DNA from: Oscillospiraceae bacterium
GTDB taxonomy: Bacteria > Bacillota > Clostridia > Oscillospirales > WRJC01
NCBI GenBank assembly: GCA_009783265.1
Contig: WRHM01000009.1
Location: 29,339 to 93,338 of the forward strand
Reading direction: 5' to 3'
DNA: 64,000 nt
Position 1 is the first letter of the stretch, and each line of letters opens with the position of its first letter. Below, in pieces: positions 6,546-60,748 of this stretch. The notes under the pieces are model-generated. The model saw only the letters and a program-made list of their open reading frames with translations. It did not search any database and had not been told where the DNA came from. Both the position numbers and the translations under genes were made by a program.

Positions 6546-6823
6546 ATTTTTTATGCTATAATATCTACGAAAAGAATTATTATGTACGCAGTTTGATTTA
6601 AGGCATAGTGCGAAACGAATTTATATAATGAACGGTATAGTTTTGACAATTTTTGGGGTGTTTTTACGGTTCTCTTTTATATTACAGCCTATGTTATATT
6701 AGCAGGATTTTTCGTTATCGAAAAATTTTTGCGTAAAAAGAGTGGAATATATCATTAAAAATGCCGACGAAACCGGATTATATATAGTTTCGCAATCGGC
6801 TAAAATAAAAATTTAATAGTGAG

Positions 6824-6833
6824 GGAAATTTAT
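6824..6833 (+). repeat. Cassette 5' core motif GGAAATTTAT (copy overlapping the SBP start codon)
   Basis: Same 10-mer as at 11156, 59355 and 30050 (rc). Confidence 0.5.
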
Positions 6834-8331
6834 GTTAATTAAAAAACTTATTTTTGCGATTATAGTTGCTTGTATAATTTTCACAGTATCATGCGGCGAT
6901 TCGAATAATCAAAATGTCAATGGCGATTCAATATCTAAAACTGATAATACGAATCCTGAAGAAAAAAACGAAGAAACAGGGGAGATTGCCGAAGCGCGCG
7001 TACTGCCCGATTTGCCGGAGCAAAACTACGGCGGATATAAATTCACATGGCTGGCATTTGATTACGGAGTCAGTCATCCCGGCTCTGTCAGTCAATTCCC
7101 GCGTGAACTTGTGGCAGAAGAAGGAGACGGCGATATTATAATCGACGCTACATACAGAAGAAATCTGACTATATCCGAAAAATACGGCGTGGAATTTGAA
7201 ATGATTACAACGACTAACGAAAAAACCACTCTTAATAAAGCGGTCAAAGCGGGTGACGATATTTATGACGCGGCGATGATTTTCAACAATAATGCGCCGG
7301 GCGTTATGTCAGCCGACCTGCTTCTCGACACAAGCAAGCTGACATATGTAGACTGGGACAAACCATGGTGGGATTCCGCAATAAAAGCAATATCAATAGC
7401 CGGCAAAAACTTTTTTCTCGCCGGAGATATAATGATATTGGACAAAGAAGCCATTAACGTTCTGTTTTTCAATAAAAAACTGATGGCGGACAACAACATG
7501 GAACTTCCGTATCAATCGGTTTTGGACGGGAAATGGACGTTTGACAAATTAGACAGCTATATCAAGGATTTTTCGAAAGATTTAAACGGCGACGGAGTAA
7601 TAGGCAAAGGCGATATGCTGGGGCTTTATATTATGAGCGACGCGTTTCATGCGTTTTATGTCAGCGGAGGCGGGCTTCTCGCGGAGAACGACAGGAACGG
7701 CATACCTCAGCCGACGTTTGGTTCGGAGCAGAGCATTTTGGTCATGGATAAAATAGCCGACGTTCTATTCGGAAAAGAATATGTCACGAATTTTCATACA
7801 AACCAGTGGGGTACGGAATGGGATATGTACGCATCGTTCAACGAAGGCAGAATGCTTACGATGTGGGGGCGTCTGTACGTCCTTGATTCTCTTAGAAATA
7901 TGGACGACGATTTCGGGATACTGCCGCTGCCGAAATACAGCGAATCTCAGGAAAAATATTACAGCGATGTAAATTCTTATTCAGGATACATGATAGGGAT
8001 TCCCAAAAGCGCGTCAAACCCCGAAAGGACAAGCGTAATACTCGAAGCGCTCGCGGCTGAAAGCAGATATACCCTGCTCCCGGCGTATTATGACATTACT
8101 TTGCAGAGGAAATTTACCCGCGACGAAGAATCCGGGGCAATGCTTGATATATTATTCAGCACTACAGTATACGATTCTGGCGGAGCGTACAATTTCGCGG
8201 ACACATGGATTCAAATGTCTGGTTTATGCGGTAAAGAAGACAGGAATTTTGCTTCGTGGTGCGAAAAATACGAATTAAAAGTACAGCAGGCAATAGATAA
8301 AATGGTCGCACAGGTCGAAGCTATGGAATAA
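6832..8331 (+). CDS. ABC-type extracellular solute-binding lipoprotein (carbohydrate type), orphan
   Basis: Lipobox IFTVSC. Size and composition are typical of sugar SBPs. No permease or ATPase genes are adjacent. Confidence 0.7.
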   Translation: MLIKKLIFAIIVACIIFTVSCGDSNNQNVNGDSISKTDNTNPEEKNEETGEIAEARVLPDLPEQNYGGYKFTWLAFDYGVSHPGSVSQFPRELVAEEGDGDIIIDATYRRNLTISEKYGVEFEMITTTNEKTTLNKAVKAGDDIYDAAMIFNNNAPGVMSADLLLDTSKLTYVDWDKPWWDSAIKAISIAGKNFFLAGDIMILDKEAINVLFFNKKLMADNNMELPYQSVLDGKWTFDKLDSYIKDFSKDLNGDGVIGKGDMLGLYIMSDAFHAFYVSGGGLLAENDRNGIPQPTFGSEQSILVMDKIADVLFGKEYVTNFHTNQWGTEWDMYASFNEGRMLTMWGRLYVLDSLRNMDDDFGILPLPKYSESQEKYYSDVNSYSGYMIGIPKSASNPERTSVILEALAAESRYTLLPAYYDITLQRKFTRDEESGAMLDILFSTTVYDSGGAYNFADTWIQMSGLCGKEDRNFASWCEKYELKVQQAIDKMVAQVEAME

Positions 8332-8407
8332 ATTAAGTATATCCCCGATATTAAGGAAATTAATCCCATTCATTTATTAAATATTACATTATTCAAAGAG
8401 TTATAGT

Positions 8408-8422
8408 ATAAGCATTTTCTTC
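8408..8422 (+). repeat. Cassette 3' motif ATAAGCATTTTCTTC (copy 1)
   Basis: Exact 15-mer shared with 11978, 60732 and 29530 (rc). A 20-nt stretch is identical to copy 2 (agtataagcattttcttcag). Confidence 0.85.
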
Positions 8423-8464
8423 AGCTCCTATAAAATCAAATTAACCGTAACAAATATATATTTT

Positions 8465-9607
8465 CTACGGCAGCATATTTATCATTTCCAGACATAAGCG
8501 GCCGTTATGATACGGGCATTTCCACGCGCCGCATAAACCGCCTGAATTTTTAACTGCCTCGCCGTTTTCGTTTACGTAAACATACCATTCGCCGTAAGGC
8601 GAGATAAAATAATTTTTGACGTAATTCCATAGATTTTCAGCGAGAATCATAGATTTATTATTGCCGTATAAATTATACTGATGAACGAGAGCGACTATCG
8701 CTTCAGCCATTACCCACCACGAACGCGCTTTATTTTCGATGCCGTCTGTGCAGTCATAATAAACGCCGTTTCTGCCCTCGTCCACAAATCCTTTTGATAT
8801 TACGTTTTGCGCGACTTTTTCAAGTTTCGGCGATAAATTATTTGTTATATAAGCATTGCCCAAAACTTCGCAGGCCCTGTAAATCAGCCATGATATTTCT
8901 ATGTCATGCCCATAAGAGAGCATATCCCCAACCGGGTTCATAAATTTGTCAAAATAGCATTCAAGACGGCATAATTTATCGTTATACGCTTTATCTATAA
9001 CAAGATTAATCGAATATTCCAGCGCGTTTCGCGCTTCTTCTGATTTTACAGCCTGATAATATTCCGTATATGCCTCGATTATGTGCAATAAAGTATTCAT
9101 CGTTCGGGTGTATTTAAAATCGCGCCTGTCGAAGTTATATAATTCAAGATAACCGTATTCGTCTCTGAATTTATTTTCGATTAAATCAAATATTTTATTG
9201 GCGGCATTCAAAGCCGGTTCGTGTTTGCTTATTGAATAATACGCGCTGATCGAATATAACGCAAACGCCAAAGCATAAGTGTGTTTTTGATTATCGTCGA
9301 TTTTGCCGTCGTATTCGACCGACCAGTAGATCCCGCCGTCGGCTGGATCGAGCATATATTTTTTTATAAATTCAAATTGCAGTCTGGCAAAATCAAATAA
9401 TTTTTCATCTTTTAAAATTTTATAGCATGAACTGTAATACCATAGTATTCTTGTCTGTAAAACTGCCGCCTTCGGAGCTTTTTTGCTGATTTTATTATCG
9501 CTGTCAACGCTGCCGTAAAACCCGCCGTATTGAGTATCGTATAAATTATTCCAGAACGGCAGCAAATCATTTGTCAGATGATTTTGAAATTCTGATTTGT
9601 TGAGCAT
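8465..9607 (-). CDS. N-acylglucosamine 2-epimerase (AGE) superfamily protein (cellobiose 2-epimerase / mannose isomerase-like)
   Basis: N-terminal LTNDLLPFWNN...GGFYGS. Alpha/alpha-toroid-like repeat pattern. C-terminal KCPYHNGR motif. Confidence 0.8.
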   Translation of the reverse strand: MLNKSEFQNHLTNDLLPFWNNLYDTQYGGFYGSVDSDNKISKKAPKAAVLQTRILWYYSSCYKILKDEKLFDFARLQFEFIKKYMLDPADGGIYWSVEYDGKIDDNQKHTYALAFALYSISAYYSISKHEPALNAANKIFDLIENKFRDEYGYLELYNFDRRDFKYTRTMNTLLHIIEAYTEYYQAVKSEEARNALEYSINLVIDKAYNDKLCRLECYFDKFMNPVGDMLSYGHDIEISWLIYRACEVLGNAYITNNLSPKLEKVAQNVISKGFVDEGRNGVYYDCTDGIENKARSWWVMAEAIVALVHQYNLYGNNKSMILAENLWNYVKNYFISPYGEWYVYVNENGEAVKNSGGLCGAWKCPYHNGRLCLEMINMLP

Positions 9608-9771
9608 ATTATTATTCTCCTTTTGAATTTTAATTGTTCAGATATATGCAAAAAATATCGCACTCTTATGCAAGACCCTCTTTAAAAAAGAGGGCTTTGG
9701 CAAAAATTTTTAAGTTGCAATTATTATATCATAAATTTTTAGATTAAAACACAAGAAAGGAAAAAATATTT

Positions 9772-11136
9772 ATGTCAAATATAGAAATACCGTCCTCGGT
9801 CAATACTAACTCAAAACCGTCGCAGCTCAAAATCACCGATGTAAGATTCACGGATATTGTCGGCGCGCCTATGCCATGCACATTGATGAAAATTTATACA
9901 AATCAGGGGCTTGTTGGTTTAGGCGAAGTTCGCGACGGAGCTTCGAGAACTTATGCCGAAATTCTCAAAAGCCGCATACTCGGCGAAAATCCGTGCGAGA
10001 TAGATAAAATTTTCAGGAGGATAAAACAATTCGGCGGGCAGGCGCGTCAAGCCGGAGGCGTCTGCGGCGTTGAAATCGCCCTGTGGGATTTAGCGGGCAA
10101 AGCCTACGGAGTGCCTGTATATCAGATGCTCGGCGGTAAATTCAGGGATAAAATCAGGATATACTGCGATACTGACGTTTCGGGTAAACATACCGGAAAA
10201 GACATGGGCGAAGCTCTTAAAAAACGCATGAATATGGGATTTACGTTTTTAAAAATGGACTTGGGAATCGGGATTTTATATCACGAAAAAGGAGCGTTGA
10301 ATGCGCCTCTGGGATTTTTGCAGGAACCGCAGGAAAACTGGGAAAAAAACAAAGGCGACGATCCGTCAATTAAAAGATACGCCCGCAACAGAAATTATGA
10401 TTATTATAATATAGCGCACCCATTCACGGGAATACATATAACAGAACACGGATTTGATATTCTTGAACAGTATGTCTCGGACGTAAGGTCAATTATCGGC
10501 TATGAAATTCCGCTGGCGATAGACCATTTCGGGCATATCTGCGTTGAAGACTGTATAAAACTCTGCCGCCGCATAGAAAAATATAATATAGCGTGGGCTG
10601 AGGATTTGATACCGTGGCAATATACGGACCAGTATGTCCGCCTGAGGAATTCTACGACTGTGCCGATTTGCACGGGGGAAGATATATATTTAAAAGAAAA
10701 TTTCAAGCCGTTGTTTGAAAAAGGCGGCGTTGCTGTGATTCACCCGGATTTGCTGTCAAGCGGCGGGATATTCGAAAACAAAAAAATCGGCGATATGGCG
10801 CAGGATTACGGCGTTGCGATGGCTGTGCACATGGCTGAGTCCCCTGTGACATGTATGGCGGCGGTTCACTCAGTCGCGGCTACCGAAAACTTTTTAGTCC
10901 TCGAAAATCACTCTGTCGACGTTGACTGGTGGGACGATATTGTGATAAAAAGCGAGAATAATAATCAAAAACTCGTGCAAAACGGATATATCGAAGTACC
11001 GGATAAGCCGGGTCTCGGAATCGATGATTATAACGATGAAATTATAAAAGAACATCTGCACCCGAGATTTCCCGAATTATGGGCTTCGACTGATATTTGG
11101 AACGACGAGTGGAGCCATGACAGGCTCTGGAGCTAA
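9772..11136 (+). CDS. Enolase-superfamily (mandelate racemase/muconate lactonizing family) sugar-acid dehydratase-like protein
   Basis: KITDVRF...YTNQGLVGLGE N-terminal capping domain. Barrel motifs AIDHFGH, WAEDLIP, GEDIY. Confidence 0.8.
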   Translation: MSNIEIPSSVNTNSKPSQLKITDVRFTDIVGAPMPCTLMKIYTNQGLVGLGEVRDGASRTYAEILKSRILGENPCEIDKIFRRIKQFGGQARQAGGVCGVEIALWDLAGKAYGVPVYQMLGGKFRDKIRIYCDTDVSGKHTGKDMGEALKKRMNMGFTFLKMDLGIGILYHEKGALNAPLGFLQEPQENWEKNKGDDPSIKRYARNRNYDYYNIAHPFTGIHITEHGFDILEQYVSDVRSIIGYEIPLAIDHFGHICVEDCIKLCRRIEKYNIAWAEDLIPWQYTDQYVRLRNSTTVPICTGEDIYLKENFKPLFEKGGVAVIHPDLLSSGGIFENKKIGDMAQDYGVAMAVHMAESPVTCMAAVHSVAATENFLVLENHSVDVDWWDDIVIKSENNNQKLVQNGYIEVPDKPGLGIDDYNDEIIKEHLHPRFPELWASTDIWNDEWSHDRLWS

Positions 11137-11153
11137 AAGTGATTTCATTAACG

Positions 11154-11167
11154 TAGGAAATTTATAT
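11154..11167 (+). repeat. Cassette 5' motif TAGGAAATTTATAT (copy upstream of GNAT-1)
   Basis: Exact 14-mer also found at 59353-59366 and 30046-30059 (rc). Confidence 0.85.
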
Positions 11168-11190
11168 TATGAACAGGAGAGAAAATTTAA

Positions 11191-11967
11191 ATGGATATTA
11201 ATAAAATACGCAGACAAATTATAAAAGAAGAAATGGAATTTCCTAAATCGTTCACGTTTTATGAGGAACGCGATTACGGTATATTGTATCATAATATTGA
11301 AAATCCAAATTCGGGCGACAGTAACCATTCTGTGATATATCCCGAAAGAATAACGGATTTGCGTTATGTGCTGAATGATATAGCAAATTTTTATGAAAGC
11401 AAAGGTAGCTCTTATTTATGTATTTATCACCCTTTTGTTGCGGATTATTTCATTGACAATGCGAAAATATTGAAGGAGTGCGGTTATGAATTTACTATCA
11501 GTCCCGATACTCCCGTTATGCTATTGACAGAAAAAAATAAAATAGACCTCCCAAAACGTCTTGATATACGTCATATCGCAAATTGGGATGAAAGCATCAA
11601 TAATGACGTATTAACGTGTGTAGCCAATAAAGAACATTTTACAACCGTAATAAAAAACAGCATGGGTGAGAACAACTATTTATTCATTGGTTATATTGAA
11701 AATGAAGCCGCCTCTTTGTTAGCCTTTCATGTATCAAAACATGGCGTTACAAGATTTGATGAAATGGGAACGGCTGAAAAACATAAAAATAAAGGTTATG
11801 CCCGTGAAATGAACAGATATGCGGCGGATTTTGTGCGTAACCATAATTTGCCGATAGCGTATCAATGGCCCGCCCATAAGACGTCCGAACGGATTACTAC
11901 TGAAGCGGGATTCAAGATAGCTTTCACTATACCGTCAGGTTCTGCAACGCTTGCCGAATATAGATAA
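11191..11967 (+). CDS. GNAT-family N-acetyltransferase (cassette gene G1)
   Basis: C-terminal acetyl-CoA motif region (FDEMGTAEKHKNKGYAREMNRYAADF). Own RBS cAGGAGag. Confidence 0.65.
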   Translation: MDINKIRRQIIKEEMEFPKSFTFYEERDYGILYHNIENPNSGDSNHSVIYPERITDLRYVLNDIANFYESKGSSYLCIYHPFVADYFIDNAKILKECGYEFTISPDTPVMLLTEKNKIDLPKRLDIRHIANWDESINNDVLTCVANKEHFTTVIKNSMGENNYLFIGYIENEAASLLAFHVSKHGVTRFDEMGTAEKHKNKGYAREMNRYAADFVRNHNLPIAYQWPAHKTSERITTEAGFKIAFTIPSGSATLAEYR

Positions 11968-11977
11968 ACCACGCAGT

Positions 11978-11992
11978 ATAAGCATTTTCTTC
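11978..11992 (+). repeat. Cassette 3' motif ATAAGCATTTTCTTC (copy 2)
   Basis: Exact 15-mer, 10 nt after the GNAT-1 stop codon. Confidence 0.85.
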
Positions 11993-12042
11993 AGTTCATT
12001 GTATTTTAACGCCACTGGCGCGCCGTGAAAGGAATTAATGGT

Positions 12043-12744
12043 ATGCCCGAAAAATTTGTATATTTTAATAATACTCCGGATATTGTTTCGTCAAATGTTG
12101 CGGAGCATATAAAAACTATTGGTTATACGCCTGTTTTTAGTGATAATAATATTGATTTAACGTCGGCAGAATGCGTAAATAATTTTCTTGAGCCGTATAA
12201 AGATAATCTTGTCGGGGCGGTATTGTCAAACCCTCCCGTGGCTGGGATGCGCGGCGGGATAGAAGATACAACCGATGAAATGTGGAATAACGCACGAGAT
12301 ATTTTTGTTGTGCCTATGTTAAATATAACGCAGGCCGTCGGGAAGATATTTATGGAAAATAAAAAAGGCAGTATTATATATTTAAATTCGGTTCACGCCG
12401 AAAAACCAATCGGCAACGGATTTTTATATACTACAGCCTGCGCCGCAGTGCAGGCGTTGTGCCGTGAAGCCGCTTTGATATACGGAAGATATAATATCGG
12501 CTGTTATAATATTATGAGAGGGATTGTCGAAGGCGAAGAAAAATATTTTACAAGCGATTATTCCCCGATACATCATAACAGCGAAATCAGATTCCCGAAA
12601 GAAAAATTGCCGGAAGCAAACAGTTTAAACGAATTATGCGCTTTTTTACTCGGCGGCGGAGCGTATATATTAAACGGGTCGGATTTGCGCGCCGACGAGG
12701 GATTCACGCTGTTTTACGGCAAATCGGGATATTATAAAAATTAA
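12043..12744 (+). CDS. SDR-like protein with degenerate cofactor and catalytic motifs
   Basis: Aligns to the SDR core (NSV...YTTACAAVQALCRE...YNIGCYNIMRG), but TGxxxGIG is absent (FNNTPDIVS) and YxxxK reads YTTAC. ATG at 12043 has an AAAGGA RBS. The track's GTG at 12025 is less likely. Confidence 0.6.
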   Translation: MPEKFVYFNNTPDIVSSNVAEHIKTIGYTPVFSDNNIDLTSAECVNNFLEPYKDNLVGAVLSNPPVAGMRGGIEDTTDEMWNNARDIFVVPMLNITQAVGKIFMENKKGSIIYLNSVHAEKPIGNGFLYTTACAAVQALCREAALIYGRYNIGCYNIMRGIVEGEEKYFTSDYSPIHHNSEIRFPKEKLPEANSLNELCAFLLGGGAYILNGSDLRADEGFTLFYGKSGYYKN

Positions 12745-12779
12745 TTTAAAAATACATAAGTCAGGGATATTTTATAAAT

Positions 12780-13559: not shown

Positions 13560-13606
13560 TATAATATAATAAATTTAATAAAATTAAAAAGAAAGGAATA
13601 AAATTT

Positions 13607-14506: not shown

Positions 14507-14516
14507 AATAAAAAAT

Positions 14517-14828: not shown

Positions 14829-14851
14829 CCTCCCCGTATTATTATAAAATT

Positions 14852-19635: not shown

Positions 19636-19677
19636 TTTATTTTTTATTTAAAATTATTCAGGAGTATTTATTAATTT

Positions 19678-19930
19678 ATGAAAAGATTAAAAGATTATCT
19701 ATTGAACATGAATCCAAATTCAACGACTTACGAAGAATTATATGAGGGTAAAATGTTAGTCTGGCCCGTTCCGCTTGATTCTGACCCCGAATATATATAC
19801 GACAGCACATATTGGTATACAGTATCTGAACAGGTTATTTTACACAAGGAGAATTCTATGAAAAGATTAAAAGATTATTTATTGAACATGAATCCAAATT
19901 CAACGACTTATGACGAGATATATGAAGGGC
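19678..19930 (+). repeat. Tandem duplication of the 5' 60-codon module of the ATPase gene (period 180 nt)
   Basis: 19678-19737 and 19858-19917 are about 58/60 identical (both encode MKRLKDYLLNMNPNSTTY). Similarity decays afterwards (DSTYWYTVSEQ vs DSTYLYETLEHEQ). Confidence 0.85.
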
Positions 19931-29032: not shown

Positions 29033-29101
29033 AAAACCACCCCGTCAGGCTAAAGCCTGCCACCCCTCCACGGAGGGGTGCCCGAAGGGCGGGGTGGTTT
29101 T
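29033..29101 (+). terminator. GC-rich branched stem structure acting as terminator of the ABC operon
   Basis: Outer stem aaaaccaccccg/cggggtggtttt encloses three hairpins (caggc-taaa-gcctg; cacccctc-cacg-gaggggtg; ccc-gaa-ggg). Confidence 0.6.
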
Positions 29102-29151: not shown

Positions 29152-29492
29152 AAAAATATTTCCACAGGTTTATTTAACTGATAGCATTTTATAACCGTAT
29201 CGGCCGTCCCCTTTGATTTACCGTCCCAGAAAGCCAGAACCATGTGGGCATACCTGACGATTTCAGAGTTTCTGATAAACGCGGCGGATTTGCCGTATCT
29301 TTTATATTCGGGCAAAAATTCTTTAAATAATAATCCGTGTTCTTTTGCGTAACGGTGCGCGAGAGTATCTATCCCCTCTGCGCCGCCGCTGACTATTTCG
29401 GTGCAGTTTTTGGGGATACTCCCGCATATTTTATCATACCAGTACTCTTCTTTGTTTTGTATATCTCTTGACCCGACTATCGCAACTCTCAT
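29148..29492 (-). CDS. DUF2493/SLOG-family protein
   Basis: MRVAIVGSRD...IVSGGAEGIDTLA...AFWDGKSKGT pattern of the DprA-like SLOG/DUF2493 family. No recognisable SD upstream. Confidence 0.65.
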   Translation of the reverse strand: MRVAIVGSRDIQNKEEYWYDKICGSIPKNCTEIVSGGAEGIDTLAHRYAKEHGLLFKEFLPEYKRYGKSAAFIRNSEIVRYAHMVLAFWDGKSKGTADTVIKCYQLNKPVEIFL

Positions 29493-29529: not shown

Positions 29530-29544
29530 GAAGAAAATGCTTAT
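29530..29544 (-). repeat. Cassette 3' motif ATAAGCATTTTCTTC (copy 3, minus strand)
   Basis: Exact 15-mer on the minus strand, overlapping the last base of the GNAT-2 stop codon. Confidence 0.85.
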
Positions 29545-30044
29545 TAGTGGGTGTTGTCAAAAATAAAACCAACCCATTCATCATTTTCTGTTCCGCACTC
29601 TTGAAAATCATCTTCTGTATATTCAGAAATTATAGACTTCCAAAATTTTCTGGCAGGAAAATTATTTGGTAATTGACACACTTCCCATTTCCCCCTGAAC
29701 ATATCAAAAGTAGCTTTTGCCGCAAAACTGCCTACTCCTTTTCGACGGTACTTTTTCATAATGAAAAATTCATTGATGGTGTGAGCATTTACATAGTGAC
29801 CGCTATTTTCTTTTACCAATACAAATCCGGCCAATTTTCCATCTACACGGATAAAGAAAGGGTGTCGGTTACTATCAGTCCATAAATAGTCTGTGTATGA
29901 ATAATTGAAATAACCATATTCATTAATATCTTCATTTTCAAATTCTGTAAAGTCATAATTGTATAAATTCATCAACTGAATAAAAACAGATTTTTGTTCA
30001 ATCAAGATAGGTTCAATTTTTATTTCCACATTAATACCTCGCAT
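29544..30044 (-). CDS. GNAT-family acetyltransferase (COG5628-like; cassette gene G2)
   Basis: FFIMKKYRRKGVGSFAAKATF acetyl-CoA motif. Alternative start GTG at 30029 is preceded by GAGGT. Confidence 0.75.
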   Translation of the reverse strand: MRGINVEIKIEPILIEQKSVFIQLMNLYNYDFTEFENEDINEYGYFNYSYTDYLWTDSNRHPFFIRVDGKLAGFVLVKENSGHYVNAHTINEFFIMKKYRRKGVGSFAAKATFDMFRGKWEVCQLPNNFPARKFWKSIISEYTEDDFQECGTENDEWVGFIFDNTH

Positions 30045-30045: not shown

Positions 30046-30059
30046 ATATAAATTTCCTA
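30046..30059 (-). repeat. Cassette 5' motif TAGGAAATTTATAT (copy upstream of GNAT-2, minus strand)
   Basis: Exact 14-mer on the minus strand, immediately 5' of the ATG at 30044. Confidence 0.85.
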
Positions 30060-37874: not shown

Positions 37875-39248
37875 TTATTTACCAAAGGCTTCCGCCCTGT
37901 CAAGCGTTACAAATATCCTGAGCATGTCGTCGCTTAATTGCAGATTGCCGCTTTCGTTGCCTTTTAAATAGCCTTTTTTTGTCATTTTATTTATAGTCGC
38001 TCTCGCCCATTCCGGCATATTGCCGTCGACCCAGCCGTATTTGACTTTTGAGTTATTCGTCCATTTGTCTAAATTTGTCTTTATGCTACTTATTTCTTTT
38101 TTCAGCTCGTCATATTCTTTACTCACCAAATCCACCCCGTTCTGTTCTGAATTTATAATTTTTTTACCCTCTAAATACGGCATAGGGTCAACATAATATC
38201 CGTTATCCCATGCCATGCTGTTTTCTTTCACGGCAAAATGCAGGTGTATGCCGGTGCTGTCACCTGTCGTACCCATTACGCCGAGTATATCGCCTTTTTT
38301 TATTTTTTGCCCTTCTTTGACCCTTACGCTGCCCGCTTTCATGTGAAAATACCGCGTCAGTATTTTATTTGCATGGGATATTGACACGCTATAGCCGATA
38401 AGAGACCCGACTAACGTGCTTGTTACAGTGCCGTCTGCGGCAGCCTTTATATATACATCCTGAGTTTTTTGTTTCCCGTCCCTGTCAATTAAATCAACAC
38501 CGTCGTGCGCCGGACGCTGAGGCGTTCTGAAAGCGTTCCCCGCGCCTGACAGTATTTCGCTATCTGTCGAAATTACATGATTTATTATTTTATTGCCGAT
38601 TATATTCGTTGCAATATTAACAGTATTATTCGCGTTATTATTCACAACAACCGGTTTAGCTAAATCTATATAGCCCCAGTTCATATCGACATTGCCGGAT
38701 ATCCCGTTTATTTTGCCTGTGCACGAATGCTGCCACACGGCGACGCGGCTGTCTATCGCAGAGGGCTTTGCCGAAGTATAATGCGCCTGCCATAATAAAT
38801 ACGGCACCCTTGCCATATCGACATAATTATTTCGCCAGTTGGTGTTTATATATAACATCGGCGTATGCCCTGCTGATTTTATAGCCTCGCAAAAATTTAT
38901 TATCATATCCGTTATGATTTTTTTGCCGAGTGCAGTCTGGCTGTTATCTTCAACGTCAAAAGCCGCCGGATAATCCAATTTTTTGTTTTTTAATAAATTC
39001 AGCATAAAATCGGCTTCCTGTTTTGCCTGCTGGGCGTTTAAAGCATAACTGTAATGATACGCGCCGACTTTTATCCCAGCCGCTTTTGCGTTATTATAAT
39101 TTTTCTCAAAATACGGGTCTGTATAATTCGTCCAGTATCCCGTGCGTATAAAAGCAAATTCAACCCCGTCGGACTTTACTTTTTTCCAGTCGATTTCGCC
39201 CTGCCATTTGCTTACGTCAATCCCTTTTATCTGTGTTATCTGCGCCAT
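37875..39248 (-). CDS. Bifunctional cell-wall hydrolase: GH25 muramidase + M23 peptidase + C-terminal SLH-like motif (endolysin-like)
   Basis: GH25: GIDVSKWQGEIDW...FAFIRTGY. M23: HDGVDL...GDSTGIHLHFAV. Tail: WARATINKMTKKGYLKG. Start MAQITQ has a GGAGG RBS. Confidence 0.8.
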   Translation of the reverse strand: MAQITQIKGIDVSKWQGEIDWKKVKSDGVEFAFIRTGYWTNYTDPYFEKNYNNAKAAGIKVGAYHYSYALNAQQAKQEADFMLNLLKNKKLDYPAAFDVEDNSQTALGKKIITDMIINFCEAIKSAGHTPMLYINTNWRNNYVDMARVPYLLWQAHYTSAKPSAIDSRVAVWQHSCTGKINGISGNVDMNWGYIDLAKPVVVNNNANNTVNIATNIIGNKIINHVISTDSEILSGAGNAFRTPQRPAHDGVDLIDRDGKQKTQDVYIKAAADGTVTSTLVGSLIGYSVSISHANKILTRYFHMKAGSVRVKEGQKIKKGDILGVMGTTGDSTGIHLHFAVKENSMAWDNGYYVDPMPYLEGKKIINSEQNGVDLVSKEYDELKKEISSIKTNLDKWTNNSKVKYGWVDGNMPEWARATINKMTKKGYLKGNESGNLQLSDDMLRIFVTLDRAEAFGK

Positions 39249-39576
39249 TTTGATTATTACCTCCGTTTTTATCAATTTCATTAATATCATTTTTTAATCC
39301 TGTCATTTTCACAAAAATCCTGCTTATTATATCAATTCCTTTCGCCCCGAAATTACCCGCAATCCCGGCAAAACAAAACGCCACGTAAGCATTTAATCCC
39401 TGCCATTCGTAAATGCAAAATATCAACGCTCCCGAAAATGCCGCGCTTACCGCTTCGATAACCAGCGCGGAAAGATTCAGCGATTCGCCTGTTTTCGTAT
39501 TCAGCCATTTGACGCATGAGCCAAACATCGCAAACAAAGCGAGCCCGACCGCTATAAATATATCCTGTTGTTCCAT
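39217..39576 (-). CDS. Holin-like small membrane protein (3 TM, charged C-terminus)
   Basis: Start MEQQDIF is preceded by GGAGGGGAGGG. Has 3 hydrophobic helices and an acidic/basic tail. Its 3' end overlaps the endolysin start by 32 nt. Confidence 0.6.
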   Translation of the reverse strand: MEQQDIFIAVGLALFAMFGSCVKWLNTKTGESLNLSALVIEAVSAAFSGALIFCIYEWQGLNAYVAFCFAGIAGNFGAKGIDIISRIFVKMTGLKNDINEIDKNGGNNQNGADNTDKRD

Positions 39577-39617
39577 TATTCTAAAAACCCTCCCCTCCTT
39601 TTTTACAGGGTCTGTTA

Positions 39618-40256
39618 TTAATATTTTCGTCTGCATAATAACGTCACAGTACTGACAATAAATACCGCGGATATAATTATAAGCGAAACCGCGCCATAAG
39701 TTATCCATGAGCTTATTCCGGTATTTACCGAATATTTTGACACGCCGATTACGGCAAGAAACCTGCCGCTCAGATTTTTATCCGTCGGGACCCACCGGTA
39801 ATATATATAAAAATCATGCGCGTCCGTGCCGTCTTTGTCAAAGCATACCCATATTTCCCCGCTCTCGTTTGTTTTGACTTCACGGATAAATTCCGGGTAG
39901 CTTTCTATATTAAAATTAAACGAATTATCGTCAGATACCGACGTCTGTTGCTCATATTTGGATATACTTTCTAAATTTTCGTCGAACAACTCTGCATAAA
40001 TACCATCTGTCGAATCCATTTGCATTATAACGCCCGACAGAATTTTTCCGTAGTTATGCACTTCCCAGTTATTTTCCAGTTCGACAAACCTGTCGATTTC
40101 ATCGCAGATCAAATCAACGTCGAATCTTTTATCTATAATTTTTTCCTGCATAAGCATATCGTTGACGTGTTCTATCGCAAAATAAAAATAGCCGCAGAAT
40201 GCGGCAAGCACCGCGAGCGCGGCGGCAAATAAATATTTTCTCCAGCCTTTTAACAT
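39618..40256 (-). CDS. Hypothetical bitopic membrane protein (TM - about 150-aa extracytoplasmic domain - TM), sensor-like, no output domain
   Basis: N-terminal TM (LFAAALAVLAAFCGYFYFAI) and C-terminal TM (ITYGAVSLIIISAVFIVSTVTLL). AGGAGGGG RBS. Lies directly upstream of the holin. Confidence 0.55.
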   Translation of the reverse strand: MLKGWRKYLFAAALAVLAAFCGYFYFAIEHVNDMLMQEKIIDKRFDVDLICDEIDRFVELENNWEVHNYGKILSGVIMQMDSTDGIYAELFDENLESISKYEQQTSVSDDNSFNFNIESYPEFIREVKTNESGEIWVCFDKDGTDAHDFYIYYRWVPTDKNLSGRFLAVIGVSKYSVNTGISSWITYGAVSLIIISAVFIVSTVTLLCRRKY

Positions 40257-49636: not shown

Positions 49637-50563
49637 TTAATGCTCCTGTGGGTTCACATGAACCATGCAGTGCTTTACTCTGGGATTTACTTTTTCCACT
49701 GCGTCATGAATATTTTCGGCTATATCATGAGTTTGATTTAAACTCAGATTACCGTCTGCGCTGATTTCTATGTCAACGTATATTTTATCGCCAAAAAGCC
49801 TCGTCTTTAACTGGTCGATCTTAAAATCTCCCTGATTTTGTATTGCCTCGCGTATTTCTTCGATTGTTTCGTCGCTTGCAGTTCTATCAGTCATTTTGCC
49901 TATAGCGTCCATAAAAATATTATACGCCGCTTTTACTATAAATACACAGATAATAATACATGCCGCCGAATCCAGTATAGGAAACCCCAATCGCGCGCCG
50001 AGTATCCCCACAAAGCTGCCCACTGATGATAAAGCGTCGGAACGGTGGTGCCATGCCCCAGCCATCAACGCAGTCGAATTTATTTTTTTCGCGAAAATTT
50101 TCGTATACCAGAACAAGCCTTCTTTGACCGCAATCGAAACCACAGCCGCAATCAGTGCAAGCAGACCGGGTATAGCCAAACTTTGATAATCGCCTGAAAA
50201 AATATTTTTTGCTCCGCCGTATCCGATAACAAATCCGGTAGCGGCAAGAATTGCCGCGAGAATAATCGCCACAACGCATTCAAACCGTTCATGACCATAA
50301 GGATGCTCTTTGTCTGATTTTTTATTTGACAGTTTTATGCCGACCAAGACAATCGCCCCGCCTAAAATATCTGACATAGAATGGACCGCGTCTGATACCA
50401 TCGCCATCGAGCCGGCAATAATTCCGGCTGATAATTTAAAAGCTGTTAAAATTATATTGAACAAAATGCCGACAAAACTCACCTGTACGGCAATTTGTTC
50501 ATTGCTTTTACTGCTTTTATTTTTTTCGTTTGTATTTTTTGTATCGTTTATATCGTTTGTCAT
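49637..50563 (-). CDS. Cation diffusion facilitator (CDF) family metal efflux transporter (CzcD/FieF-like)
   Basis: Six TM with HSMSD and HHRSD metal-site motifs and a C-terminal cytoplasmic domain. GGAGGT RBS. Confidence 0.85.
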   Translation of the reverse strand: MTNDINDTKNTNEKNKSSKSNEQIAVQVSFVGILFNIILTAFKLSAGIIAGSMAMVSDAVHSMSDILGGAIVLVGIKLSNKKSDKEHPYGHERFECVVAIILAAILAATGFVIGYGGAKNIFSGDYQSLAIPGLLALIAAVVSIAVKEGLFWYTKIFAKKINSTALMAGAWHHRSDALSSVGSFVGILGARLGFPILDSAACIIICVFIVKAAYNIFMDAIGKMTDRTASDETIEEIREAIQNQGDFKIDQLKTRLFGDKIYVDIEISADGNLSLNQTHDIAENIHDAVEKVNPRVKHCMVHVNPQEH

Positions 50564-50671: not shown

Positions 50672-50735
50672 AAAAATAAAAAAAGCACACCAATAATGGA
50701 ACAATATTACTGTCCCACAGATGTGCGTGTAAATC
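50672..50735 (-). terminator. Intrinsic terminator forming the expression platform of the riboswitch-like leader
   Basis: GCACAUC...GGUGUGC stem followed by U7AU5. Its 5' arm overlaps the 3' strand of leader helix P4. Confidence 0.55.
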
Positions 50736-50805
50736 ACCTGCTGCCGCATTATCGCGACCCAGCCCCATAAACATTAAAATTAAAAGTTTATCGCCTGATC
50801 AGTTT
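50709..50805 (-). promoter_or_regulatory. Candidate NiCo (czcD-motif) riboswitch aptamer
   Basis: Four helices can be drawn: P1 ACUG/CAGU; P2 AUAAAC/GUUUAU; P3 GUCGC/GCGGC; P4 CAGGUG/CAUCUG. Junction strings are CUGGG, GCAGCAGG and CUGUGGGACAG. It sits between a consensus promoter and a CDF gene. Confidence 0.55.
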
Positions 50806-50855
50806 ATTTTGTACTGTAATTTATATGCAGTGCAAATAGTAGCCCTATATTTATT

Positions 50856-52539: not shown

Positions 52540-52540
52540 T

Positions 52541-54508: not shown

Positions 54509-54559
54509 ATAATAAATTAAAAATAAATAACAAAAAAACAAAGGGGATTTAGATGTTTT

Positions 54560-55048: not shown

Positions 55049-55090
55049 GGTGTGCCAAGCTTTTTTATGAAAGAGAGGGTTCTCGATAAA

Positions 55091-55405
55091 ATGAAAATGT
55101 TCTTGCTGAGCGACAACAGCGACACATGGGAGGGCATGAGGCTTGCCGGAGTTGACGGGGTTATACTTCATTCCCATCAGAAAGAAGAAATCGAAGCGAA
55201 AATAAAAGAACTTATAAAATCCGATGATACAGGTATTATTTTAATAACTGAGAAACTGAGAATTTTATGTCAGGATTATATAGATAATATAATGCTCAAG
55301 TATAAAAAGCCCCTGTTTCTGGAAATACCGGACAGGCACGGTTTCGGACGCTCAAAAACGTCGATTACGGATTATATAAAAAAATCTATAGGTTTGAAAT
55401 TGTAA
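55091..55405 (+). CDS. ntpF: V-type ATPase subunit F
   Basis: About 104 aa, with the MKMFLLSDNSDT...GIILITE pattern and operon position. Confidence 0.75.
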   Translation: MKMFLLSDNSDTWEGMRLAGVDGVILHSHQKEEIEAKIKELIKSDDTGIILITEKLRILCQDYIDNIMLKYKKPLFLEIPDRHGFGRSKTSITDYIKKSIGLKL

Positions 55406-55432
55406 AATAACAGAAACGGCGGTGATATTTAA

Positions 55433-56056
55433 ATGCCTTTGAGCGCTGAAGAAAAACTTGATAACTTCGCGAAAGAAGCCATAACCGACGCAAAGCATAT
55501 AAGCCAAGAAATAGACCGGCAGACAAAATTTGAATTTCAGGAAAAAACTAAAGACGGCAGGAAAAAAATCTTTGCCCAGACACAGGACTATATTCAAAAA
55601 GAGACAGAAAAGATAAAAAAAGAAAAAAGTATGGAGACATCGCAGGCTAATATAAAAACAAGACAGGATTATTTTAAATACGCAGACTCTATATCGTCCC
55701 GCGTGTTTGAATCTGTGAACACAAAACTCAAAAATTTCACAGAATCAAATGATTACGAAGATTATCTTTTTCAGTCCTGCAAAAATGTCATAGAAAAAAA
55801 CGGGGTGACCTTAGGCATATTTTATATGCCCGGAGACGAAGAGATTATGACTGTGAAAATCAAAAATAAACTTGACGGATTATTTGATATTTCGCAGGTT
55901 GAATTTATAAAAGACGAAACTATAAAAACCGGCGGGCTGCGCTTTTTTGACCATGTAAAAAATATATTGATAAACGATGTATTCGACGAAAAGACAGAGC
56001 GTGCAAAAGAATTATTGAATTCTATAATCGGCCCGCACTTTACGGCTGTGAGATAG
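55433..56056 (+). CDS. ntpE: V-type ATPase subunit E
   Basis: 207 aa with an N-terminal long charged helix and a C-terminal globular domain. Operon position supports it. Confidence 0.75.
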   Translation: MPLSAEEKLDNFAKEAITDAKHISQEIDRQTKFEFQEKTKDGRKKIFAQTQDYIQKETEKIKKEKSMETSQANIKTRQDYFKYADSISSRVFESVNTKLKNFTESNDYEDYLFQSCKNVIEKNGVTLGIFYMPGDEEIMTVKIKNKLDGLFDISQVEFIKDETIKTGGLRFFDHVKNILINDVFDEKTERAKELLNSIIGPHFTAVR

Positions 56057-56078
56057 AAAATAAATAATAGAAATTAAT

Positions 56079-56105
56079 ATAGGGGTGACCCTTGCGGTCG
56101 CCTTA
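56079..56105 (+). repeat. TAGGGGCG-family palindromic element (ataggggtgacccttgcggtcgcctta)
   Basis: ggtgacc-cttgc-ggtcgcc hairpin. Inverted partner lies at 56156-56182. Confidence 0.65.
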
Positions 56106-56131
56106 TTAACAAACATAAGAGGTGCAATAAC

Positions 56132-57934
56132 TTGAACAATGAAAGTGAAAGCAACGGCGGGCGGCCGCAAGGGTCTCCCCTGCGAATATATGGGATAAAC
56201 GGCCCTGTCGTGACTATATCCGGGCATACGGATCTGAGTATGCAGGAAATGGTGTTTGTCGGGGGGAAAAAACTGATAGGGGAAGTTATAAATATATCAG
56301 ACGATAAAACTACTATACAGGTTTACGAAAATACGACGGGGCTTTATTCGGGCGAGCCTGTGGAATCGACAGGTTATCCGATACGCGCTACTCTGGGCCC
56401 CGGTATGCTGTCGAATATTTATGACGGAATCCAAAGGCCTTTAAAAGCTATAGAAAATATATCGGGATATTATATTAAAACAGGGATAGATGTCTCCAGC
56501 ATAGATTATGAAAAAAAATGGGATATAAAAATTTTAGCAAACGAGGGGCAAAAAGTAAATCCCGGAGATATATACGCCGAATGCGACGAAACGTCTGTGA
56601 TAAAACATAAATTTATGATACCCGGCAATATTTCCGGTATTATAGAATCGGTTGTTTTAAACGGCAAATATTGCGTAAACGACGAGATTTTAAAAATAAA
56701 AACAGAATCCGGCGAAATTGCGAGTATTAATTTAACCGAAAAATGGGCGATAAGAAAGCCCCGGCCGGTTAAAGAACGTCTGGAGCCTAAAACTCCGTTG
56801 ATTACCGGGCAAAGGGTAATAGATACTCTTTTCCCGATAGCTAAAGGCGGAGCCGCCGCAATCCCCGGCGGATTCGGCACGGGCAAAACTATGCTCCAGC
56901 ATCAACTGGCGAAATGGAGCGACGCGGATATAATAGTATATGTCGGCTGCGGTGAGCGGGGCAACGAGATGACGCAGGTATTAGAAGAATTTTCTGAGCT
57001 TGTTGACCCGAAAACCGGCAAAAGTATGCTTGAGCGGACTGTTTTGATTGCAAACACTTCAAATATGCCTGTCGCGGCACGCGAGGCATCGATTTATACG
57101 GGGATAACGATAGCCGAATATTACAGGGATATGGGTTATCATGTTGCGATAATGGCGGATTCTACGTCAAGATGGGCTGAGGCGTTGAGGGAAATATCGG
57201 GACGGCTTGAAGAAATGCCCGCCGAAGAAGGATTCCCGGCTTATCTGCCGTCGAGATTATCGGCGTTTTATGAGAGAAGCGGGATAGTCGAAAATCTGAA
57301 CGGCAGTATCGGTTCTCTGACAATAATCGGGGCTGTGTCCCCTCAGGGCAACGATTTTTCGGAGCCTGTCACCCAGAATACAAAAAGATTTATCAGATGT
57401 TTTTGGGCATTAGAAAAATCTTTGGCTTATTCGCGGCATTACCCCGCGATAAACTGGACTACAAGTTACAGCGAATATCTTGTTGAATTAGACGGCTGGT
57501 TCACTGAAAACGTAAATCCTGAGTTTAACAAATGCCGCGCGATAATAAAAAATATACTGAACGATGAAAATCAATTAATGGAAATCGTAAAATTAATCGG
57601 CAGCGATTTGCTTGCCGACGACCAGAAATTGATTTTGGAGACTGCGCGGGTTATAAGATCGGGATTTTTACAGCAGAACGCCACGCATCAGAACGATTCA
57701 TATTCACCTATCGAAAAACAGTATCTCATACTTGAAGTTATAATAAAATTATACGACAGGGCAAAAGAATTAATATCGCGCTCAGTTCCTGTTTCGCAAT
57801 TAAAAGAGAGCGGTGTGTTTGACATGATAATACGCGCGAAGTACGAGATACCCAACGATAAATTGGAGATGTTCGGCGAATTGTTGGATAGTATAGAGAA
57901 GAAGATAAAAGAAATCGAGGATAGATATAATTGA
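56132..57934 (+). CDS. ntpA: V-type ATPase catalytic subunit A
   Basis: Walker [16 protein letters not shown] and [16 protein letters not shown] start with an AGAGGTG RBS. Codons 9-17 are encoded by a palindromic repeat copy. Confidence 0.9.
56156..56182 (-). repeat. TAGGGGCG-family palindromic element inside the 5' end of ntpA (21/23 identical to 1908-1930)
   Basis: gggcggccgcaagggtctcccct vs gggcggccgcaaaggtcgcccct. Its reverse complement is 19/21 complementary-compatible with 56082-56102. Confidence 0.7.
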
Positions 57935-59337
57935 TTATGAACAACATAGAATATATAGGATTATCACAGATAAACGGGCCGCTGATTGTTATCGACGGGA
58001 TAGAAAACGACTGTTATGAAGAACTCGTGGAAATCATAAGCAAAGACGAAAAACGTCTGGGAAGAATAATACAAATAGAGGGAAACAGAGCCGTTATTCA
58101 GGTTTTTGAAGGGACGAACGGCCTCTCCCTCAACAATACAAGAACGAGATTGCTCGGCGAGCCTATGAAATTTGCGGTAAGCAGGGATATATTGGGCAGG
58201 ATTTTCGACGGGGTCGGGCGGCCTATCGACGGCTACGGGGAAATATTCGCCGAAGCTAAGCTCGATATAAACGGCAGCTCGATAAATCCTGTGTCAAGAG
58301 ATTACCCGAGAGATTATATAAGAACGGGAATATCTTCGATTGACGGCTTGGCGACATTGATAAAAGGGCAGAAACTGCCGATATTTTCAGGGTCGGGCAT
58401 GAGCCATAACGAGCTTGCGGCTCAGATAGTAAGCCAAGCTAATGTCGAAGGCTCGGACTACGCGATAATTTTCGCCGCTATGGGCGTAAAAAACGACGTG
58501 GCGCAGTATTTCAGGCGTTCTTTTGAAGAAACGGGGGTTTTATCAAGAGTCGTGATGTTTATGAATCTTGCCAACGACCCTATAATCGAGAGAATCACAG
58601 CCCCCCGCTGCGCGCTGACTGCCGCTGAATTTCTCGCCGCGCAATACGGCATGGACGTTCTTGTGATTATGACCGACATGACTTCTTACGCCGAGGCACT
58701 GCGCGAATTTTCATCGGCGAAAGGCGAAATCCCGGGAAGAAAAGGCTATCCGGGATATTTGTATTCGGATCTGGCTTCGCTTTATGAAAGAGCGGGGAAA
58801 ATAAAAAATATAAATGGCTCTGTCACGCAAATCCCAATTTTAACTATGCCAAACGACGATATTACGCACCCTGTACCGGACTTGACGGGATATATAACCG
58901 AGGGTCAGATAGTTTTGTCGCGTTCGCTTGAACAAAAAGGGATTTATCCGTCGGTTTCGGTATTATTATCTTTGTCAAGGCTGATGAAAGACGGCATAGG
59001 GACAAAATATACGCGGGAGGACCATTCGGCAGTCTCAAACCAGCTATATTCTTCTTATGCCAAAGTCGAGGACGCGCGCTCTTTAGCATCAGTTATCGGC
59101 GAAGAAGATTTGTCCCCGATTGATAAATTATATATAGAATTCGGGCGCAAATTCGACAGTATATTTTTAAACCAGTCCAAATCCGACAACAGGACGATTG
59201 ATACTACGCTTGATTTAGGCTGGCAGCTTTTATCGCTTTTGCCAAAAGAAGAATTAGACAGGTTAGACCCGAAGCTTTTGGAGCAAAAATACGGCAAAGT
59301 CAATGTTATCGAGGATAATACGGATAGTATGAATTGA
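57931..59337 (+). CDS. ntpB: V-type ATPase subunit B
   Basis: [19 protein letters not shown] and the degenerate P-loop typical of B subunits. Confidence 0.9.
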
Positions 59338-59352
59338 TGTAAAGATTAAACT

Positions 59353-59375
59353 TAGGAAATTTATATTTTCTTCGT
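59353..59375 (+). repeat. Cassette 5' motif TAGGAAATTTATAT fused to left copy of 11-bp direct repeat ATTTTCTTCGT
   Basis: 14-mer identical to 11154 and 30046 (rc). ATTTTCTTCGT (59365-59375) recurs at 60738-60748. Confidence 0.85.
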
Positions 59376-59391
59376 AAAAAAAGGAGAACAA

Positions 59392-60714
59392 ATGAAGTAC
59401 AATCTTGAAATTAAAATAGTGCCGAAAGAACATTATATAAAAGTTAGCGGAAATATAAAAAATATAGAAAACGATATAAATTTATTTTATCTCAACGAAA
59501 ATTTTACGCTTAATAAATTAACAAACGGGCAAAACGATATTAAATATATACATGATAAAAATAAACCTCACCCTTTATATGACTTGACCTCGCGCCCTGT
59601 AATTTTGCAAACTGCTGTAAAAGAATTAGAGTTTGAATATGACGGGTATATTCCTGAAATAACAAACGATATAAACCAAATTGACGAAGATATTGTAGAG
59701 CTTTCAGGTTATTCAGGCTGGTATCCGAAAGATATTATATATACAGAAAATACCGAAACGCTTGAACCTCACATTAAAAACGGAGATTTTGCGTTTGAAT
59801 TGAATATCGAATTGCCAAACGAGTATATTTTTGCGGCTAACGCGGAAATAAAAAATATTGAAAAATCATCAAATATTACAATATATAATATTTCTTCATA
59901 CGGTGACGATTTTGATATTGCTCTTTTTGCCTCGAATAAAGTAGTAAAGATTGAAAAAAGCTTAAACGGAATTTATTTTTCTTCGATATGCCCATTTATT
60001 ATGGAAAAGAAAAACACGCTTAAATTAGATAATTTAATTGAGGGGCAAAAAATAATAACAGAGTTATTAGGCGAGCCAATCAAAAAGCAACCAACTTGTT
60101 TTATTAATCGTCCACGCGGCGGCTGGGGGTATGCACGAACTGCATTTGTTTCAATGCCCGGAATAACAGACGAGAATGACGAAAACTTAAAAGATTTGTC
60201 AGAAAAATCCATGATACTTAGTATCGGCGGAGATTTACACGAACTTTCTCATTTTTGGTGGGGCATTGCTTCGGGAATTGAGCCGGAAGATTGGATAAAC
60301 GAAAGCGGTGCGGAATTTACAATGCTTGCTGTTTTGAAAGATATGATTAAACTGGATGATTATAAAACTTTAATAGAAAAAAACGGATATATTAAACATA
60401 TAAATGAACTTGAATCAGAAGCTGCCATTTGCGAAACTAAAACAGACGAATGGGACGCAAGATATGTAAACAGATATGAAAAAACCGCAATTATGTATAT
60501 TGGCGCGGAAATTCGTTTCGGCAGAAAAAATCTTTTTGAATTTTTAAAAGAATTTTACAATCAGAATAAAACAGAATGTAATGCGACTACTGATAAATTT
60601 TTAGATATATGCGAAAAAGTTTTAGGAAAAGACTCAAGAGAATATTTTAATTGGCTATTATATGCAAAAGGCTGGAAAAATATTGATATAGAAAAAGATA
60701 TATTAAAATATTAG
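59392..60714 (+). CDS. M1-like gluzincin metallopeptidase (cassette gene P) inserted between ntpB and ntpD
   Basis: HELSHFWWG...WINESGAEF (HExxH plus a downstream WxNE Glu ligand). Own RBS AAAGGAG. Confidence 0.65.
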   Translation: MKYNLEIKIVPKEHYIKVSGNIKNIENDINLFYLNENFTLNKLTNGQNDIKYIHDKNKPHPLYDLTSRPVILQTAVKELEFEYDGYIPEITNDINQIDEDIVELSGYSGWYPKDIIYTENTETLEPHIKNGDFAFELNIELPNEYIFAANAEIKNIEKSSNITIYNISSYGDDFDIALFASNKVVKIEKSLNGIYFSSICPFIMEKKNTLKLDNLIEGQKIITELLGEPIKKQPTCFINRPRGGWGYARTAFVSMPGITDENDENLKDLSEKSMILSIGGDLHELSHFWWGIASGIEPEDWINESGAEFTMLAVLKDMIKLDDYKTLIEKNGYIKHINELESEAAICETKTDEWDARYVNRYEKTAIMYIGAEIRFGRKNLFEFLKEFYNQNKTECNATTDKFLDICEKVLGKDSREYFNWLLYAKGWKNIDIEKDILKY

Positions 60715-60731
60715 ATTTATTTATGTTCAAA

Positions 60732-60748
60732 ATAAGCATTTTCTTCGT
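60732..60748 (+). repeat. Cassette 3' motif ATAAGCATTTTCTTC (copy 4) + right copy of direct repeat
   Basis: Exact 15-mer, 17 nt after the peptidase stop codon, flanked by GTTCAA on both sides. Confidence 0.85.

Follow-up and report, generated by a model that had tools for sequence, protein, structure and literature searches.

Promoterless Single-Gene Cassettes Between Two Unlike Short Sites in the Operons of an Oscillospiraceae Bacterium

A 64-kb stretch of contig WRHM01000009.1 from an Oscillospiraceae bacterium (64,000 nt, positions 29,339 to 93,338; referred to below as the window) carries three genes that are horizontally acquired, promoterless cassettes of a single open reading frame (ORF) each. 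They encode a divergent GNAT-like protein (GNAT1), a GNAT acetyltransferase (GNAT2) and an M1-like peptidase (M1) and are bracketed by the same pair of short and unlike sequences, a 5′ motif ahead of the start codon and a 3′ motif at or behind the stop codon (Table 1). The cassette family, found in anaerobic gut Firmicutes, is probably mobile, and the system behind it appears to be undescribed.

The 3′ motif is the 15-mer ATAAGCATTTTCTTC, found in four exact copies in the window, three of them on the plus strand (8408, 11978 and 60732) and one on the minus strand (29530-29544). With up to two mismatches allowed there is no copy beyond these four, compared to 0.45 expected by chance, and none of 100 shuffled sequences reached four. 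The 5′ motif is the 14-mer TAGGAAATTTATAT, exact at 11154 and 59353 on the plus strand and at 30046-30059 on the minus strand, where it sits 1-25 nt ahead of the start of the three genes. The recurrence of the exact motifs is far above chance. All copies of the 3′ motif lie on the coding strand, 10, 17 and 76 nt past a stop codon or, in GNAT2, overlapping it; the copies at 8408 and 11978 have the 20-mer AGTATAAGCATTTTCTTCAG in common, and a degenerate copy is located at about 6617. The counts, positions and non-random nature of the motifs, all claimed in an earlier note on this DNA, were thus confirmed by motif scan and shuffling. The bases following the 3′ motif in the four window copies are GTTC, GTTC, TTTG and GCTC. 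Rfam returned nothing at the motifs, neither in the window nor in 20 related loci, and a string search of the literature for the motif found nothing. The window matches contigs of JGI sample 3300002505, ENA and Logan assemblies at 98.7-100% identity.

Across 50 genes the GC content of third codon positions (GC3) has a mean of 0.426 and a standard deviation of 0.054. The three cassette ORFs show the three lowest values (z −1.9 to −3.0), and for this reason they are judged to be foreign. The GNAT assignment of GNAT1 is based on sub-threshold family matches of the 11191-11967 product. No convincing promoter or terminator was found at the GNAT1 and M1 cassette boundaries. There, the claim that each gene brings its own ribosome-binding site but neither promoter nor terminator holds, whereas GNAT2 has a promoter-like match that overlaps its 5′ motif and is too near the ATG to serve GNAT2. 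The right segments of the other two end in Shine-Dalgarno regions for the resident gene downstream: in GNAT1 AAGGAATTAATGGT (12029-12042), followed by the ATG of an SDR gene, and in M1 the new ACAGGTATTATAAATTT (60765-60781), followed by the ATG of atpD. These regions themselves resemble the 5′ motif.

For GNAT1 and M1, though not for GNAT2, empty sites are known from relatives at 92-94% protein identity, as the earlier note had proposed to check in orthologous operons. In locus L328 (atpB 94% identical) the atpB stop codon is followed by TC and then by the atpD ATG, with no motif and no M1 gene, and in L327 (89% identical) the two genes are 9 nt apart. The two genes are adjacent in 68 distant Clostridia loci and in two close relatives. 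In L343, L344 and L345 (MR_MLE 92% identical) the stop of the MR_MLE dehydratase gene lies 5 nt from the start of the SDR reductase gene and GNAT1 is missing; one 92% relative stems from a higher-termite gut metagenome (PMC7800795). An atpD search of genome contigs yielded relatives only at ≤55% identity, and the 1.2 Mb of Clostridia loci retrieved in this way contain no motif.

Because the flanking genes lie just 2-5 nt apart in the empty sites, the inserts can be taken to span about 11137-12042 and about 59338-60781. The inserted DNA reaches 15-17 nt past the 5′ motif in GNAT1 and M1 (23 nt in GNAT2) and 35-50 nt past the 3′ motif. Since it extends beyond both, the motifs are internal sites and not the termini of the insert. 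Comparison with the empty sites revealed no clean target duplication. The left junction of M1 can be read as a copy of the atpD start region (p 0.014), but this was not relied on since both are ribosome-binding sites, and the direct repeat ATTTTCTTCG on either side of M1 was dropped, as it is not found in other cassettes.

The same two operons of close relatives also hold other single or paired genes without motifs (L327 9157-10020; L343 3514-4560; L345 3411-4856 and 6987-8158). Motif-less inserts in relatives comprise an HTH_3 membrane protein gene between atpA and atpB, a Fic gene, an APH gene and ORFs of no assigned function. The V-ATPase and sugar-acid operons are hotspots that take up genes by more than one route.

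Outside the window, a metagenome scan for the 15-mer, with a pattern that imposed RKYY after the motif, gave at least 119 loci. Three quarters of the matches listed lie inside long reading frames and are due to chance, and about 25 are intergenic, right after a co-oriented ORF. Viral contigs, searched for the 15-mer and a longer pattern, served as control: 102 of their 132 matches are inside long ORFs and none is cassette-like, so that they were treated as chance. Among the matches listed, the 15-mer directly follows the stop of a co-oriented ORF in 18 of 120 metagenome compared to 3 of 132 viral cases. A strict 5′ motif upstream on the same strand accompanies 6 of 23 real-looking sites; in the controls it was seen in 1 of 89 and 0 of 128. 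The contigs with the motif pair span 26-58% GC and the pair brackets unrelated ORFs, whose products include DUF975, DUF2262, transglutaminase-like, S41 peptidase and BFD-like ferredoxin proteins as well as proteins without assigned function. The search for the pair elsewhere, also proposed earlier, was therefore successful on metagenome contigs, on a plasmid and in a tandem array. The plasmid, L201, is a Rep_1 rolling-circle plasmid with a methyltransferase gene that has ACAGAAAATTTATAT before and the 15-mer after it; single cassettes occur on L206, L295, L246 and L233; and L231 contains at least four AT-rich cassettes in tandem beside housekeeping genes of 65% GC. A PLSDB search with the L201 cassette region matched plasmid origin segments only, and no motifs were found on a Subdoligranulum plasmid or at a BFD homologue inside a conjugative element.

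The boundaries of the exchanged units can be read from pairs of contigs. L219 and L246 are 99.8% identical over 2030 nt through the 15-mer and unrelated from the A of ATAAGC on. L231 and L246 share a block ending in TATTTATAT and a block starting with ATAAGC, while the ORF between them differs (91 aa vs. 156 aa). A 67-aa BFD-like cassette, with copies 95-96% identical, occurs in three upstream and two downstream contexts that break at the motifs; identity begins at GGTATGTATAT-ATG and ends right after ATAAGCATTTTCTTCA. The TAA of the motif doubles as stop codon in at least eight cassettes, and several have their start ATG immediately behind TTTATAT(A). As breakpoints, start ATG and stop TAA all fall at the motifs, the units are bounded to the codon, with the breakpoints lying inside the sites. 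The earlier reading of single-gene cassettes that are mobile or shuffled and have unlike ends is in accordance with the empty sites, the foreign composition, the pair at other loci, one cassette in several contexts and different cassettes at one site; its view of the motifs as the ends has to be given up, as the inserts extend past both.

Three side observations concern these contigs. In L231 the direct repeat GGGACGAGAGTATA (1675-1694 and 4415-4434) flanks the first three array cassettes and might mark the attachment core of a larger element integrated here. In the conjugative-element region with the BFD homologue (L322 9887-12982; L326 826-6186) spacers repeatedly hold AAATTCCAATTT or ATAGGAATTT, loosely similar to the 5′ motif. 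A RAGATH-18 RNA (L256 1451-1516, minus strand, 55.7 bits) precedes the BFD-like cassette by about 30 nt.

As the best account of these data we favour, with moderate confidence, ORF-precise cassettes that would be mobilized in trans and exchanged at the two short unlike sites. The unit would consist of a short left arm, the 5′ site, the ORF, the 3′ site and a right arm. In this order the 5′ site, purine-rich, Shine-Dalgarno-like and ending in TTTATAT often with the ATG directly after it, would lead into the ORF, the TAA of the 3′ site would often serve as stop codon, and the right arm would supply the next resident gene with a new ribosome-binding site. Insertion would take place in spacers of 2-5 nt that separate translationally coupled operon genes, and the cassettes would be transcribed by read-through from the host promoter. 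Once resident, they would be swapped between molecules via crossovers inside the two sites, resembling natural cassette exchange. We infer a trans-acting enzyme that would not be encoded nearby; its intermediates might be circles or single strands, and a weak hint at its chemistry comes from the following comparison.

The GNAT2 3′ site TTTTCTTCATTTGATACAATAAATAAC resembles the pUB110 origin TTTCTTATCTTGATACATATAGAAATAAC. Written out it reads TTTTCTTCA-TTTG-ATACAAT-AAATAAC, and the double-strand origins of pC194, pUB110 and L201 have the form TTTCTTAT-CTTG/ATAC...TAGAAAT/AAC. When the whole window was scanned (128 kb), the GNAT2 site came third with the pUB110 origin and tied first with that of L201, and it was unranked with pC194. 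The transposase of IS91 is an HUH enzyme and belongs to a nuclease superfamily that also holds the Rep proteins of rolling-circle plasmids. The IS91 family targets CTTG/GTTC and produces no target duplication; its mini-elements are mobile in trans (PMC13181058). The likeness of the GNAT2 site to the pUB110-type origin and the GTTC that follows two window copies of the motif are suggestive and point weakly towards an HUH enzyme. That a nick-and-join enzyme of this type (a Rep_1/pUB110-type plasmid Rep or an IS91-like transposase) drives the exchange is a tentative and rather doubtful proposal. Slightly less doubtful, though still no more than possible, is a broader description: a gene-cassette system of anaerobic Firmicutes, independent of integron integrases and maybe HUH/Rep-driven, that would deliver promoterless, ORF-precise genes into 2-5 nt spacers of translationally coupled operons, bring a ribosome-binding site for the ORF and for the next gene, and swap among chromosomes, plasmids and arrays via crossovers at the two sites.

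With both groups of HUH-dependent elements the likeness is partial. IS91/ISCR elements also have unlike ends; no target duplication and a GTTC/CTTG-like tetranucleotide beside one end, which here lies inside the inserted DNA and not in the present target, may be further traits in common, and in IS91 the cargo of mini-elements is moved by a transposase supplied in trans (PMC13181058). In contrast, the conserved sites described here are 14-16 nt long without subterminal palindromes, no Y2 HUH transposase was seen in the 64 kb and its flanks, and the cassettes are ORF-precise, located inside operons and exchanged at both sites. With the pC194/pUB110 origins the 3′ motif shares a T-rich left arm (TTTTCTTC vs. 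TTTCTTAT), one copy additionally shares the nick heptamer TTGATAC and the AAATAAC box, and one cassette resides on a Rep_1 plasmid; but the chromosomal cassettes have no rep gene, and the similarity is on par with the best chance matches in the window.

Several points weigh against trans-mobilized exchange at the two sites, and against an HUH enzyme in particular. The plasmid-origin likeness is clear in one copy only, the other copies lacking the TTGATA(C) heptamer, and the cassette ends have no subterminal hairpins as are typical of IS91 and other HUH elements. In the metagenome set the search pattern dictated which bases follow the motif, so that this set says nothing on flank preferences outside the window. 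On almost the entire window, Pfam calls revealed no recombinase or transposase, Phage_integrase included, which agrees with what had been noted before; nor did Pfam show one among 30 ORFs neighbouring the array and cassette loci, where a co-occurring enzyme had been proposed as a check. Among motif-bearing loci Rep_1 is restricted to L201. The array of L231 includes a 330-nt unit with a small ORF between 3′ and 5′ blocks that fits no simple model. Finally, the empty sites have no sequence in common with the motifs and no related core; because of this, the first insertion may follow another route than later exchange.

In the way it works, the system is closest to integron cassettes and the integrase-free clusters of attC sites known as CALIN: promoterless single ORFs of diverse and often unassigned function, a conserved site immediately behind the ORF, from which the stop codon can come, arrays, one cassette in different contexts, and cassettes far from any integrase. 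An unlinked tyrosine (or serine) recombinase that uses the motifs as cores, integrating circles or exchanging cassettes at two sites in an integron- or Xer-like manner, would explain crossovers inside short conserved cores, the arrays and the replacement of cassettes at one site, as well as the lack of a target duplication. A stop codon within the 3′ site, as in many attC sites, is also in line with it, and in GNAT1 and M1 a second 5′-like sequence follows downstream, the stretch from the 3′ motif to this sequence being of about attC length. The structure, however, disagrees at every point looked at. The four 3′ regions form no hairpin on either strand (z of DNA folds −0.89 to +1.76 relative to shuffles), by which an attC-like fold was rejected together with an IS91-/IS605-type hairpin. 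RYYYAAC/GTTRRRY cores are absent, the boundaries reading ATAAGC... and ...TTTATAT, and neither attI nor an integrase is present in the window. Neither site shows internal dyad symmetry by inspection, no dedicated search having been run, the ends have no significant inverted-repeat relation, and no related core remains in the empty sites. Further, a second and different conserved site lies upstream of the ORF, insertions are scattered over operon spacers instead of one platform, and complete integrons have been found in no genome of the host phylum, the Firmicutes (PMC4889954). The comparison with integron cassettes made at the outset therefore does not extend to hairpin, cores or integrase and attI, and we regard a recombinase of this kind as unlikely.

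Acinetobacter pdif modules, the other initial comparator, receive no support. Modules bounded by short sites, a recombinase encoded elsewhere, arrays and differing contexts are common to both; an 11-6-11 Xer-type site and dif-like arms are not seen by inspection (no dedicated search was run), the inverted relation is weak and not significant, and the context here is chromosomal operons in Firmicutes. Thus, IS91 mini-elements and pdif modules share some traits with the cassettes, but not the defining ones.

Motifs of this kind could also be conserved expression signals, a strong translation-initiation leader and a 3′ intercistronic element, that travel with AT-rich foreign DNA and are shuffled by rare homologous or illegitimate recombination without any dedicated enzyme. 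For the promoter-stem-loop cassettes of T4-type phages, shuffling by recombination between short repeats has been proposed. The Shine-Dalgarno-like nature of the 5′ motif, with the ATG directly or within one base after it in several cassettes, would be expected in this case, and the conserved blocks of 35-45 nt in L231-type arrays are promoter-like (TTGCTA-N17-TATTTA). The 3′ regions have less structure than shuffled sequence, which would fit coupling spacers, and relatives carry the above motif-less insertions in the same operons. RecA-type recombination, on the other hand, works efficiently only on identity far longer than the 14-15 nt available here, and the 15-mer is retained without a change in backgrounds of 26-58% GC, with unrelated sequence on either side of it. 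Codon-precise breakpoints in many independent cassettes, and a first insertion into spacers unlike the motifs, would be left unexplained. Recombination between expression signals is, accordingly, considered quite improbable.

The least probable explanation, very improbable in our judgement, is a non-autonomous transposon with cargo (a mobile insertion cassette or miniature inverted-repeat transposable element) that has terminal inverted repeats and a DDE transposase elsewhere. Mobile insertion cassettes such as MIC231 likewise carry a passenger gene without transposase between conserved ends and are mobilized in trans. In one register, the 3′ motif and the reverse complement of the 5′ motif agree at 10 of 15 positions, some extra inverted similarity (GTTnAA) is seen in the outer flanks, and imperfect direct repeats of 13-20 nt are found at the insert boundaries of M1 (14/20) and GNAT1. 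Yet left ends compared with the reverse complement of right ends gave p 0.03-0.32, and pairings across cassettes score equally high, so that the inverted repeats are not significant; a 5′-3′ pairing in the mRNA was rejected for the same reason. Moreover, the empty sites show no clean target duplication, the same cassette differs right beyond the 3′ motif between contexts, and no transposase was found. The inverted repeats and target duplications that define mobile insertion cassettes are hence not supported here.

Integrons are the only well-understood machine for the acquisition of single promoterless genes, and a different system in gut Clostridia would fill a gap. If exchange at two unlike sites is true, it would explain how accessory genes (acetyltransferases, peptidases, methyltransferases and many without assigned function) are slotted into essential operons such as that of the V-ATPase while these stay intact. 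Both motifs would act as tags for cassette mining in metagenomes and, should the enzyme be found, two unlike sites of this sort would be a natural design for cassette exchange.

The fourth copy of the 15-mer, behind the SBP gene, has to be viewed separately. The earlier note counted four cassette genes; this stands for GNAT1, GNAT2 and M1, but the SBP gene has an ordinary GC3 of 0.472, a weak 5′ match and its 3′ motif as far as 76 nt past the stop, and GGAAATTTAT ahead of its start is simply the Shine-Dalgarno region. It is probably not a cassette. Its supposed co-orientation with the flanking operon also does not apply, the downstream neighbour being a convergent epimerase gene. The 3′ motif between these two genes looks like an ORF-less remnant and not like the end of the SBP gene (Table 1). 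As a candidate for solo sites, TATATTTTCT was rejected: seven copies were found with 0.74 expected, but mostly in coding contexts.

Table 1. Segments of the three cassettes and a probable remnant in the window.
Feature	Positions	Strand	Remarks
GNAT1 left segment	11137-11190	+	5′ motif TAGGAAATTTATAT at 11154-11167 and the gene's own ribosome-binding site; missing in L343/L344/L345
GNAT1 ORF, 258 aa, divergent GNAT-like	11191-11967	+	GC3 0.324, third lowest of 50; missing in 92% relatives
GNAT1 right segment	11968-12042	+	3′ motif at 11978-11992, then A-GTTC; not present in empty sites
GNAT2 left segment	30045-30082	-	5′ motif at 30046-30059, one base (A) before the ATG
GNAT2 ORF, 166 aa, GNAT acetyltransferase	29544-30044	-	Pfam Acetyltransf_1, E 1.7e-10; GC3 0.281, second lowest of 50
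GNAT2 right segment	29493-29544	-	3′ motif at 29530-29544, overlapping the stop codon; then TTTG-ATACAAT-AAATAAC
M1 left segment	59338-59391	+	5′ motif at 59353-59366, then TTTCTTCG, then own ribosome-binding site; missing in L328
M1-like peptidase ORF, 440 aa	59392-60714	+	Between V-ATPase subunits B and D; GC3 0.263, lowest of 50
M1 right segment	60715-60781	+	3′ motif at 60732-60746, GTTC directly after
ORF-less remnant or solo site (probable)	8352-8422	+	5′-like TAAGGAAATTAAT at 8352-8364; 43 nt later exact 3′ motif at 8408-8422

A further gene of the window, AraC/APH_6_hur (622-1881), ends in ATAAGCGTTTTTTAGC (1878-1893), the TAA of which is the stop codon and which agrees with the 3′ motif, extended by one flanking base, in 12 of 16 positions; AAAATTTTATAT (488-499) is located upstream. 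This gene may be an older, decayed cassette.

Some other features of the window were observed in passing. The sole Rfam match is a NiCo (nickel/cobalt) riboswitch (50708-50812, minus strand, 71 bits) upstream of a cation-efflux gene (49637-50563). A 72-nt direct repeat of 92% identity (19677-19748 and 19857-19928) duplicates the 5′ end of an ABC_ATPase gene, and a phage-type holin gene adjoins a GH25/M23 lysin gene (37875-39708, minus strand) with no other phage genes close by. The hairpin GGGCGATT..AATCGCCCC recurs after gene ends at 4277-4306, 4359-4388 and 61429-61458. Between convergent genes, a GC-rich palindromic element (29063-29099) is 95% identical to inverted copies on the unrelated metagenome contig L200, where these (833-878 and 1231-1274) flank an ORF; it may represent a second, separate repeat family.

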